A stretch of 64,000 nucleotides of DNA, taken from assembly GCF_003019035.1 (NCBI RefSeq), contig NZ_CP027447.1; one strand, written 5' to 3'. The translations under genes were made by a program, and so were the position numbers. Under the pieces are notes generated by a model that saw only the letters and a program-made list of their open reading frames with translations, made no database searches and had not been told where the DNA came from. This DNA is from Escherichia coli. Its GTDB lineage: Bacteria > Pseudomonadota > Gammaproteobacteria > Enterobacterales > Enterobacteriaceae. Shown here one piece after another: positions 6,255 through 47,850 of the stretch (positions are counted from its first letter, which is position 1; every line of letters starts with the position of its first letter).

Positions 6255-7055
6255 TCACCACCACGCGTGGAAGTGGTGAACCGGACCAATACCGTGACCA
6301 ACTTCCAGCGTGTCGGCCTGGGCTAACGCCGATGAAAGCCAGCTTTTTGCCTCCTGTACGGTGTCAGCCCAGTTTGTATGGCGCGGGCGTAGTGCAGCCA
6401 ACGCCGCAGAGAGCGTACAACCAGTGCCGTGGGTGTTTTTGGTCATAATGCGCGGTGCAGTAAATCGTTGTTCCCCCTCACGAGTAAACAGCCAGTCCGG
6501 GCTTTGCTCATCATCCAGATGACCACCTTTCATTAGCACTGCGCCACAGCCCATCGCCAACAGCGATCGCCCTTGTTCCAGCATTTCCTGTTCGGTGCGC
6601 GCGTGTGGCGCGTCGAGCAAGGCGGCTGCTTCGGGCAAGTTTGGCGTTATTAATGAAACATGTGGCAATAATCGACTGCGTAGCGTGGCAACTGCCGAAG
6701 GTGAAAGCAGCGGGTCGCCGCTTTTTGCCAGCATAACGGTGTCGAGTACCACGTTTTGGATCTGATAACGTTGCAACCGTTCTGCCACCGCTTCAACAAT
6801 ATCGGTTTCCGCCAGCATACCGATTTTAGTGGTATCGATTCGCACATCGCTGAACACCGAATCGAGCTGGGCGGCGACAAAATCAGGCTCAATGCGATAC
6901 ACCAACTGTACGCCACGGGTATTTTGCGCCACCAGTGCAGTAATCACTGAGCAACCATAAGCGCCAAGTGCCGAGAAGGTTTTAAGATCGGCCTGAATCC
7001 CCGCACCACCACTCGGATCAGTACCGGCAATCGTCAGAGCGTTAATTCGTTTCAT
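6255..7055 (-). CDS. thiD: Hydroxymethylpyrimidine / phosphomethylpyrimidine kinase, 266 aa
   Basis: Ribokinase-fold protein ([25 protein letters not shown]..); start ATG overlaps thiM stop (ATGA); recalled as ThiD. Confidence 0.95.
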
Positions 7056-7840
7056 GCCTGCACCTCCTGCGTCAATTGCCAGAGCGCATCAAGGAAATGT
7101 GGAACAAAACTGCCTGGCCCCTCGCTTCTGGCGACTGCGCGTTCTCCAGCTTGTTTCATCCAGTGACAGGCAAATGCGATATTTTCCAGCGTATCGCCTG
7201 GTAGCGCACAACAGGCAGCGACAACCGCCGATAGTGCACAGCCAGTTCCTACCACTTTGGTCATTAACGGATCGCCACCGTGAATGCCAATGATACGATG
7301 TCCATCGGTAACATAATCCACCTCGCCAGTGACCACGACAATTGCGCCAGTTTCCCGTGCCAGTGTTTGTGCAGCAGGTATCGCGTTAGCTGCGGCATCA
7401 GTGGTATCCACTCCCCGTCCACCATTAGCAACGCCAGCTAATGCCATGATTTCCGAAGCATTACCACGTATGGCGGTTGGCTTATGGGACAGAAGTTCCA
7501 CACAAAAACGGCGGCGATAATCGAGCGCACCAACCGCAACCGGATCAAGCGTCCAGGGCATTTGTGATCGTGTTGCTTGCTCAACGGCAGCACTCATCGC
7601 TTGCGCTCGTGGCTGCGTCAGCGTGCCAACGTTAATCAACAAGGCACTGGCGATAGCCGCAAACTGACTGGCCTCTTCGGTTTCGATAACCATTGCTGGC
7701 GATGCACCGAGCGCCAGCAAGGTATTGGCAGTAAAGGTTTGCACCACATCGTTGGTCATACAGTGCACAAGAGGGGAATGTTGGTGAAAAAGGTGTAACG
7801 CGTGCGCAGATTGCGCTGAACTCAGCAGGTCGACTTGCAT
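7052..7840 (-). CDS. thiM: Hydroxyethylthiazole kinase, 262 aa
   Basis: 262-aa ORF with AGGAG RBS; preceded by a canonical TPP riboswitch; recalled as ThiM. Confidence 0.95.
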
Positions 7841-7975
7841 AGTTTGCTCCTGCCATAACGTGAAGAAGCAATGACCTGGTGGTCCGTGACTTCCCTACGC
7901 TGGCATTATCCAGATCAGGTGATACGGGTATTTCTCAGCCTTTACGCAGAAGGGCACCCCGAGTCGTTTGGTTGC
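7841..7975 (-). promoter_or_regulatory. thiM 5' leader containing TPP (THI-box) riboswitch
   Basis: Minus-strand leader reads ..GGGGUGCCCUUCUGCGU.AAGGCUGAGAAAUACCCGUAUCACCUGAUCUGGAUAAUGCCAGCGUAGGGAAGUCACGGACCACCAGGUCAUUGCUUCUUCACGUUAUGGCAGGAGCAAACUAUG, the well-known thiM TPP aptamer with CUGAGA box and SD-sequestering expression platform. Confidence 0.9.
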
Positions 7976-8062
7976 GATAATAAATCGCAGAGGAGGATGG
8001 TAATGTCCAGCGCACGCGTTGTAAACGGGGAAAAACGGCGGTATTACAATAACGTTGTGAAA

Positions 8063-8335
8063 TTATTTGATATAAGAATCCAGCACCTTCAGAACGACAT
8101 CCAGATCTTCTTCACGTTTTAGCTCATCCCCCTGGTGAACGATGTGTTCCGTCAGATGGCCTTTAATCACTTCCCGCATCAGACCGTTTACCGCGCCACG
8201 GATAGCAGCAATCTGTTGTAAAACTGCAGCGCATTCATGCGGTTCGTCGAGCATTTTCTTGAGCGCCACGACCTGGCCCTGAATCTTACTGGCACGCGCT
8301 TTCAGTTTCTGTTTATCACGGATGGTATGAGACAT
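8063..8335 (-). CDS. rcnR: Ni(II)/Co(II)-responsive transcriptional repressor (CsoR/RcnR family), 90 aa
   Basis: 90-aa all-helical ORF divergent from rcnA; recalled as RcnR. Confidence 0.93.
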
Positions 8336-8383
8336 GGCAACACCTGGTTAACAAGAATATGAAAAATCATAGCACTATTAATC

Positions 8384-8418
8384 TACTGGGGGGTAGTATC
8401 AGGTACTGGGGGGGAGTA
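8384..8418. promoter_or_regulatory. Two tandem RcnR operator sites (TACT-G6/7-N-AGTA) in the rcnR-rcnA divergent promoter region
   Basis: TACTGGGGGGTAGTA (8384-8398) and TACTGGGGGGGAGTA (8404-8418): G-tract flanked by TACT/AGTA inverted repeat, matching the described RcnR recognition motif. Confidence 0.8.
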
Positions 8419-8455
8419 GAATCAGATTGCCGAATTAATACTAAGAATTATTATC

Positions 8456-9280
8456 ATGACCGAATTTACAACACTTCTTCAGCAAGGAAACGCCTGGTTC
8501 TTCATCCCCAGCGCCATCTTACTTGGTGCGCTTCATGGCCTGGAACCGGGGCACTCAAAAACGATGATGGCGGCGTTTATCATCGCCATCAAAGGCACCA
8601 TTAAACAGGCGGTGATGCTCGGACTGGCAGCAACCATTTCGCATACCGCAGTGGTCTGGTTAATTGCCTTTGGCGGGATGGTGATCAGCAAACGCTTTAC
8701 TGCTCAATCAGCAGAACCGTGGCTCCAGTTGATTTCCGCAGTGATCATTATTAGCACCGCGTTCTGGATGTTCTGGCGTACCTGGCGCGGCGAACGCAAC
8801 TGGCTGGAGAATATGCACGAGCATGATCATGAGCATCATCACCACGATCACGAAGATCACCACGACCATGGACATCATCACCATCACGAACATGGCGAGT
8901 ATCAGGATGCCCATGCACGAGCCCATGCCAATGACATTAAACGACGCTTTGATGGTAGAGAGGTCACCAACTGGCAAATTTTGCTATTTGGCTTAACCGG
9001 TGGCCTTATCCCCTGCCCGGCAGCAATTACCGTGCTGTTGATTTGCATTCAGTTGAAAGCCCTGACACTGGGCGCAACACTGGTCGTCAGTTTCAGCCTC
9101 GGCCTGGCGTTAACGCTTGTCACCGTAGGCGTTGGCGCAGCAATCAGCGTTCAGCAGGTCGCAAAACGCTGGAGCGGATTTAACACTCTCGCTAAACGCG
9201 CTCCCTATTTTTCCAGTCTGTTGATTGGCTTAGTTGGTGTGTATATGGGCGTACATGGCTTCATGGGCATAATGCGATAA
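8456..9280 (+). CDS. rcnA: Nickel/cobalt efflux membrane protein with His-rich cytoplasmic loop, 274 aa
   Basis: Polytopic membrane ORF with central His-rich segment (HEHDHEHHHHDHEDHHDHGHHHHHEHG) encoded by CAT/CAC-rich DNA ~8820-8900. Confidence 0.95.
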   Translation: MTEFTTLLQQGNAWFFIPSAILLGALHGLEPGHSKTMMAAFIIAIKGTIKQAVMLGLAATISHTAVVWLIAFGGMVISKRFTAQSAEPWLQLISAVIIISTAFWMFWRTWRGERNWLENMHEHDHEHHHHDHEDHHDHGHHHHHEHGEYQDAHARAHANDIKRRFDGREVTNWQILLFGLTGGLIPCPAAITVLLICIQLKALTLGATLVVSFSLGLALTLVTVGVGAAISVQQVAKRWSGFNTLAKRAPYFSSLLIGLVGVYMGVHGFMGIMR

Positions 9281-26940: not shown

Positions 26941-27030
26941 TTACTTCAACAAATCAATCAGCCGTAACAGAGCCACTAATAACTCCAGTACGGCAATGAG
27001 CACGGTTAACTTTTGTGTCAGCGTGTCCAT
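26941..27030 (-). CDS. zorO: 29-aa hydrophobic peptide, type I toxin-like (ZorO-like)
   Basis: Minus-strand ATG (27028-27030) with AAGGAGAG SD; translates to MDTLTQKLTVLIAVLELLVALLRLIDLLK, a single predicted TM helix; matches my recollection of ZorO from O157:H7; long structured 5' leader with an antisense target site. Confidence 0.65.
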   Translation of the reverse strand: MDTLTQKLTVLIAVLELLVALLRLIDLLK

Positions 27031-27268: not shown

Positions 27269-27352
27269 GTTGGAACACGATGTTGCACAGGCCGTGGTGT
27301 TAGGCCTGAAAGTAGTAAATAAAAGAACCTGCCTCACCAGCAGGTTTTTTTA
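27269..27352 (+). ncRNA. orzO: Candidate antitoxin sRNA (OrzO-like), ~80 nt, divergent from the toxin gene
   Basis: Starts ~7 nt after TATAAT; 5' seed GTTGGAACACGATGTTGCAC (27269-27288) is 19/20 identical to 27103-27122, so it is complementary to the toxin mRNA leader; internal hairpin CAGGCC..GGCCTG; ends in intrinsic terminator. Confidence 0.55.
27326..27352 (+). terminator. Rho-independent terminator of the candidate sRNA
   Basis: AACCTGC-ctcacca-GCAGGTT stem-loop followed by TTTTTTT. Confidence 0.8.
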
Positions 27353-47677: not shown

Positions 47678-47850
47678 GATGAGCATTCAGATAGTGGTTC
47701 ACGCGCACGGGTTGCGCACCGCCGGAGTAAGGATTTACTGAGGCTAGCGACGCCATCATAACGAGCAAAAAGTGCGATCGTCAAAGAAGAATCGTGAGGA
47801 AATGCTGCATTGCTGACATTTACGCCAGCAATGCAGCGCAAAAGAACTTT

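Follow-up and report, generated by a model that had tools for sequence, protein, structure and literature searches.

The minus-strand element at positions 7971-7875 is almost certainly the thiM TPP riboswitch of Escherichia coli, situated in the 150-nt leader of the thiMD operon. No observation speaks against this identification. This riboswitch is already known and annotated, and the copy described here is ordinary apart from one rare base change in a peripheral stem.

Identity of the riboswitch and its surroundings

A first-pass annotation, made from the letters alone, had placed a TPP riboswitch at 7841-7975 and named an Rfam TPP covariance scan as the way to check it. That check was passed. 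Model RF00059 matches minus-strand positions 7971-7875 over its full length (model positions 1-105) with 72.0 bits against a gathering score of 54.3 bits, at an E value of 3.3e-12 for a search of 4,227 families against both strands of 64 kb. No other TPP match occurs in the window, by which we mean the whole 64-kb stretch of DNA that was analysed, and the gathering-threshold scan of that window returned three matches in total. The existing annotation points to the same bases. The window matches E. coli SCU-301 (NZ_CP051751.1) at every base of its first 20 kb (100% identity), and in the RefSeq record of that genome a feature labelled 'riboswitch / TPP riboswitch' maps exactly to 7971-7875. The 321-nt leader region is present in 5,424 of 5,426 complete E. 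coli genomes, and all of the matches listed carry the annotation riboswitch / thiM / rcnR. The K-12 leader scores 71.2 bits with the same model, slightly below the score obtained in the window. By score, by its ligand-sensing nucleotides, by helices P1-P5 and by its location in the leader of a thiamine gene, the aptamer belongs to the RF00059 family.

The first-pass annotation gave no strand. The riboswitch lies on the minus strand, as does thiM, whose ATG is 34 nt from the end of the aptamer. In the numbering of the structural literature, which we use for nucleotides of the RNA, nucleotide n corresponds to window position x = 7976 - n. The span 7841-7975 extends from the base immediately 5' of the thiM ATG to nucleotide 1 of this numbering and takes in both the aptamer and the expression platform; it leaves out the first 15 nt of the putative transcript, which would start at about 7990. 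The features of the locus, in order of position, are:

6255-7055, minus strand: thiD, HMP/HMP-P kinase, in the same operon as thiM and overlapping it by 4 nt (NCBIfam TIGR00097, 359.9 bits)
7052-7840, minus strand: thiM, hydroxyethylthiazole kinase, the regulated gene (NCBIfam TIGR00694, 330 bits, cut-off 256.4; RefSeq)
7739-7783, minus strand: thiM codons 20-34, the Rho-termination region of K-12 (mapped from Bastet 2017, PMC5499598)
7838-7840, minus strand: thiM start codon ATG (ORF list; aligns with the K-12 start)
7847-7851, minus strand: Shine-Dalgarno sequence (SD) AGGAG of thiM (read from the sequence)
7851-7868, minus strand: switching segment of the platform, which contains the CUUC anti-SD and corresponds to literature nt 108-125 (coordinates after Rentmeister 2007, PMC1920254)
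7875-7971, minus strand: TPP riboswitch aptamer (THI element), helices P1-P5 (RF00059; RefSeq)
7890-7905, minus strand: 3' part of the aptamer, literature nt 71-86 (3' strands of P5, P4 and P1), the anti-sequestering stem in the ON state (PMC1920254; minimum-energy fold)
7943, minus strand: rare allele, A for G at nt 33 of the aptamer, with loss of the loop-closing C27-G33 pair of P3 (K-12 alignment)
7973-7989, minus strand: 5'-terminal hairpin UGCGAU-UUAUU-AUCGCA, +2 to +18, 6 bp (present in every fold)
7990, minus strand: putative thiM transcription start site (Bastet 2017 numbering, with no indels relative to K-12)
7997-8025, minus strand: promoter-like site with -35 TTTACA (8025-8020), a 17-nt spacer and -10 TACCAT (8002-7997) (consensus scan, 9/12 matches)
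8063-8335, minus strand: rcnR, the upstream neighbour and not part of the switch (NCBIfam NF011613, 197.3 bits, cut-off 138; RefSeq)
8456-9280, divergent: rcnA (NCBIfam nickel/cobalt efflux transporter family; the name rcnA is from RefSeq)

All four proteins (ThiM, ThiD, RcnR and the nickel/cobalt efflux transporter) score above their NCBIfam cut-offs. The spacer between rcnR and thiM measures 222 nt, equal to that of K-12. The first-pass annotation had put the riboswitch immediately downstream of the rcnR stop; downstream is correct, but immediately is not, since 91 nt separate the end of rcnR from the aptamer, and this gap contains the promoter-like site of thiM, the putative start site and the 6-bp 5'-terminal hairpin (7989-7973).

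The site TTTACA-17 nt-TACCAT was the one promoter-like site that the scan found on the minus strand. On its own the scan is weak evidence, as shuffled versions of the region contain a mean of 1.0 such site, but the location of the site fits the start-site numbering of the literature. Bastet 2017 (PMC5499598) counts from the transcription start site and places the AUG at U152 and the ribosome binding site at G142. Because that numbering can be transferred with no indels between the window and K-12, we infer that +1 lies at window position 7990, 7 nt downstream of the promoter-like -10, with G7849 corresponding to G142; this start site is carried over from the K-12 papers. The stem of the 5' hairpin is the same in K-12 and is conserved in Escherichia, while its loop differs at 7979. 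We speculate that this hairpin might protect the 5' end of the transcript.

The riboswitch had also been offered as a positive control for RNA-element detection in the window. It serves that role well, as one of the most thoroughly characterised bacterial riboswitches was flagged at the right coordinates, and its correct recognition supports trust in RNA calls made from the sequence of this window. The fold energy of the whole leader is no better than that of shuffled sequence (z -0.34), which is expected of a bistable RNA. In other words, thermodynamics alone would have missed the element.

The program-made list of open reading frames includes a plus-strand ORF of 83 aa at 7871-8122. One could suppose that this ORF is a real gene and that the RNA match is incidental, a supposition to which we give practically no credence. 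The ORF runs antisense to the 3' end of rcnR as well as to a riboswitch that is annotated and scores strongly, RefSeq has no gene at 7871-8122, and the conservation of the region among related leaders is RNA-like, with covarying helices and an invariant SD/anti-SD core. On the grounds that it is antisense to an annotated RNA and that RefSeq has no gene there, the ORF was rejected as a gene, and the region is treated as a riboswitch in what follows.

Other RNA matches were observed elsewhere in the window. An OrzO-P antitoxin sRNA match (98.9 bits) lies at 27276-27351 on the plus strand, in the yehL-yehK intergenic region, and a 29-aa hydrophobic ORF, MDTLTQKLTVLIAVLELLVALLRLIDLLK, lies on the opposite strand at 26941-27030 (minus). 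This pair looks like a zor-orz type I toxin-antitoxin locus, and neither member is annotated in the RefSeq record. The Peptidase-S11 RNA motif RF03039 (72.8 bits) is found at 47682-47762 on the minus strand, directly upstream of pbpG, which encodes D-alanyl-D-alanine endopeptidase, and overlapping its start; this motif has no annotation in the RefSeq record.

The switch and its junction with rcnR

The mutually exclusive pairings of the ON and OFF states were both recovered by folding, and the platform sequence is identical to that of K-12. The unconstrained minimum-energy fold contains a long helix between nt 71-86 (7905-7890) and nt 108-125 (7868-7851), which is the TPP-free structure derived by chemical probing (Rentmeister 2007, PMC1920254). 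When the aptamer helices are enforced in ViennaRNA, the CUUC-containing segment pairs with the AGGAG SD, and the mean probability that the SD is unpaired falls from 0.53 in the free ensemble to 0.01. All designated pairs of P1-P5 form in the fold except C27-A33 at the apex of P3. The P1, P2, P4/P5 and lower P3 helices rest on the family model and on the K-12 crystal structure.

We propose that the switch would work in three steps. When TPP is scarce, nt 71-86 of the aptamer would pair with nt 108-125 of the platform, leaving the AGGAG SD free and thiM translated. When TPP is bound, helices P1-P5 of the aptamer would close, and the CUUC segment freed in this way would pair with the SD and block the initiation of translation. 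The untranslated mRNA would then expose codons 20-34 of thiM, where Rho loads, and thiMD transcription would stop prematurely, as it does in K-12. The K-12 thiM gene is under translational control with a secondary Rho-dependent termination that needs codons 20-34 (PMC5499598), and TPP binding has been demonstrated experimentally for the K-12 aptamer, which is one base different from that of the window (PMC2018614). For the window, we assume TPP binding, translational repression and the Rho step by analogy with these K-12 experiments. Codons 20-34 (C 29%, G 20%) differ from K-12 at two bases, ORF positions 81 and 90; both changes must be synonymous, because the sole difference from K-12 in the first 50 residues of ThiM is at residue 7 (S for G).

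Many TPP riboswitches of Firmicutes use a terminator mode (PMC5499598), and the thiM leader might be imagined to act in the same Bacillus-like way, as a transcription-attenuating riboswitch with an intrinsic terminator. We regard this as exceedingly improbable. On either strand of 7700-8500 a pattern scan predicted no intrinsic terminator, meaning a terminator-like hairpin followed by a U-run; the platform itself base-pairs with the SD; and the K-12 experiments point to translational control with secondary Rho-dependent termination. The lack of a predicted intrinsic terminator fits translational and Rho control (PMC5499598). A terminator-type platform was ruled out on the strength of the terminator scan and the direct SD pairing, which leaves translational control with a Rho-dependent step as our reading of the switch.

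A second alternative concerns the junction upstream. It holds that the region is mainly a 3' UTR or read-through tail of rcnR, such that thiMD is partly driven by the nickel/cobalt-responsive rcnR promoter and the riboswitch gates those transcripts as well. The arrangement of the locus gives this idea some footing. The two genes share a strand with 222 nt between them, the terminator scan predicts no intrinsic terminator there, and no rcnR terminator was found either by pattern scan or by folding of 8085-7972, where structure is at chance level (z 0.00). Unless Rho ends them first, rcnR transcripts may therefore continue into the thiM leader; that Rho could terminate them is itself one of the points against the alternative. 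More directly, the promoter-like site lies where the K-12 start-site numbering implies, which suggests that thiM has its own start, and among the ten best-ranked matches of a literature search no link between rcnR and thiM expression was found.

The distribution of the junction bears on the same question. A ThiM-based scan of one genome per species yielded 80 loci, and the alignment of leaders has 81 rows. Both rcnR and rcnA lie upstream of thiM in six of six Escherichia loci (L003-L008), which include E. coli, E. albertii, E. whittamii and further Escherichia species, and in none of the 74 others (L009-L082). The compact adjacency of thiMD and rcn that had been remarked on in the first-pass annotation is real here, given the 222-nt spacer, but among the loci compared it occurs in this genus only. 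Because the leader is conserved across the family whereas rcnR adjacency is restricted to Escherichia, the riboswitch is independent of rcnR, and we consider it quite unlikely that the region is mainly an rcnR tail. Our preferred reading remains a riboswitch leader with its own start site; read-through from rcnR would add to this riboswitch, not replace it. Within Escherichia, the terminator-less junction could let nickel/cobalt-induced rcnR transcription enter the thiMD leader. As an observation in its own right, the minus-strand stretch 7991-8062, from the rcnR stop to the thiM start site, is without an intrinsic terminator or significant structure.

Differences from K-12 and a rare allele in P3

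Over the 321-nt alignment of window positions 8100-7780 to K-12, mean column identity is 98% and there are no indels. Only two differences fall within the transcript. At 7979, in the loop of the 5' hairpin, U replaces C, and at 7943 A33 replaces G33, so that the topmost pair of P3, C27-G33, is broken. Eight more substitutions lie in the spacer upstream of the promoter, and seven of these fall between the end of rcnR and the -35 hexamer. The first-pass description of the aptamer as intact and matching the thiM leader holds up, with the exception of the A at 7943 in the aptamer and of position 7979 in the 5' hairpin loop.

The nucleotides on which ligand sensing depends are untouched by these changes. 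The highly conserved functional nucleotides U39, G40, A41, G42, A43, U59, G60, C77, G78 and A80 (PMC3764141) are all the same as in K-12 and 2GDI, and in the 81 leaders U39-A43, U59, G60, C77, G78 and A80 either do not vary or are at least 90% conserved. G21, C22, G37 and C24, the docking partners of L5, likewise match K-12.

The A33 allele is rare. An exact 71-mer carrying it occurs in 4 of 5,417 matching complete E. coli genomes (SCU-301, A22, A32 and E7-1N7), and the corresponding K-12 (G33) 71-mer is exact in 3,876 of 5,421 matching E. coli genomes. Across the 81 aligned leaders the 27-33 pair is CG in 64, UA in 10, GC in 1 and UG in 1, and it is unpaired in 4 rows, of which one is the window itself and two are truncated aptamers.

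We hypothesize, tentatively, that the allele weakens the switch, so that in SCU-301 and its three relatives the TPP set-point would be raised or thiMD expressed partly constitutively, although on balance we think this rather unlikely. Its rarity (4 of about 5,400 complete genomes) would be in keeping with such an effect, as would the maintenance of the 27-33 pair elsewhere by compensatory changes. With A33, only two A-U pairs are left above the bulged C24, which is stacked on A69 of L5. Nearest-neighbour calculation predicts a P3 hairpin of -1.2 kcal/mol in place of -5.8 kcal/mol. The aptamer-closed fold loses 4.6 kcal/mol of predicted stability and the ON state hardly changes; the gap that separates the aptamer-closed from the free fold widens by about 4.4 to 4.6 kcal/mol.

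Several considerations weigh against a strong effect. The Rfam score with A33 is not below that of K-12 but 0.8 bits above it (72.0 versus 71.2 bits); this score is no gauge of the effect of G33A, however, because Infernal places base 33 in the loop. The docking and ligand contacts sit in lower P3 and in J3-2, which G33A does not affect, and the leader of Buttiauxella izardii (L081) has a much shorter P3 and yet scores 76.5 bits. Since the RNA folds co-transcriptionally, equilibrium energy differences would overstate the effect of the substitution. The four strains that carry A33 came from one human, from two marsupials and from an agricultural setting, a range of sources that does not suggest a strongly harmful change.

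The effect of G33A is probably small. That it measurably shifts the TPP set-point of the thiM riboswitch, as a natural one-base tuning in a peripheral helix, is a possibility that we hold to be doubtful. In either case, the allele provides a ready-made natural variant for studying how the stability of a peripheral helix relates to riboswitch thresholds.

Related leaders and known TPP riboswitches

A homologous leader ending at the thiM ATG was found by nhmmer at 79 of the 80 loci. In the 81 aligned rows P1, P2 and lower P3 are invariant and P4/P5 nearly so; because these helices hardly vary, they provide little or no covariation evidence. The three upper pairs of P3 behave differently: they change in a compensatory way, reading CUUC...GAAG in some species, for instance, and CCAU...AUGG in others. 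No variation is seen in the CUUC/GGAG anti-SD/SD core of the 81 leaders. Since their cores do not vary, the ON and OFF platform helices gain little support from covariation, and what the alignment offers for them is conservation.

Among other Enterobacteriaceae (L009-L082, among them Citrobacter, Kluyvera, Kosakonia and Enterobacter), thiM leaders have the same aptamer core and the same CUUC/GGAG switch as the window. They differ in that the region of the promoter and 5' hairpin, upstream of about nt 8, cannot be aligned, and in that the top of P3 and the linker hairpin vary, with compensatory changes. At the locus of Providencia rettgeri RB151 (L076), neither nhmmer nor Rfam found a TPP leader within 2.5 kb upstream of the thiM homologue.

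Two Pseudocitrobacter leaders deserve separate mention. In P. faecalis DSM 27453 (L038:2366-2506) and P. vendiensis (L040:2366-2506), the 3' half of the aptamer and the whole platform are kept, the 5' half (P1-P3 and J3-2) has been swapped for unrelated AT-rich DNA, and neither leader has an Rfam TPP match. Judged from sequence, this looks like a natural loss of TPP sensing, and if so, translation of thiM would be predicted to be constitutively open in these species. A Pseudocitrobacter metagenome-assembled genome (MAG, L032) has an intact TPP switch (73.6 bits). The same locus carries a fluoride riboswitch (L032:2205-2272, minus strand, 52.3 bits) on the opposite strand about 100 nt upstream of the thiM TPP riboswitch, and a match to the sok antitoxin RNA (L032:4341-4514, minus strand, 95.7 bits) downstream.

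The TPP riboswitches of Bacillus and other Firmicutes, such as that of tenA, belong to the same aptamer family as thiM. Their expression platform is an intrinsic terminator/antiterminator, whereas none is predicted in the thiM leader. Within E. coli, the thiC and thiB (tbpA) TPP riboswitches belong to the same Rfam family and are subject to the same Rho-coupled translational control (PMC5499598), but they serve other operons, have other expression platforms and lie outside the window. The K-12 thiM riboswitch (upstream of b2104; 2GDI; PMC1920254, PMC2018614, PMC5499598) occupies the same locus as the element described here, with the same neighbours and the same 222-nt spacer, and the two are identical in P1, P2, P4, P5, J3-2, the pyrophosphate pocket, the anti-SD, the SD and the start codon.
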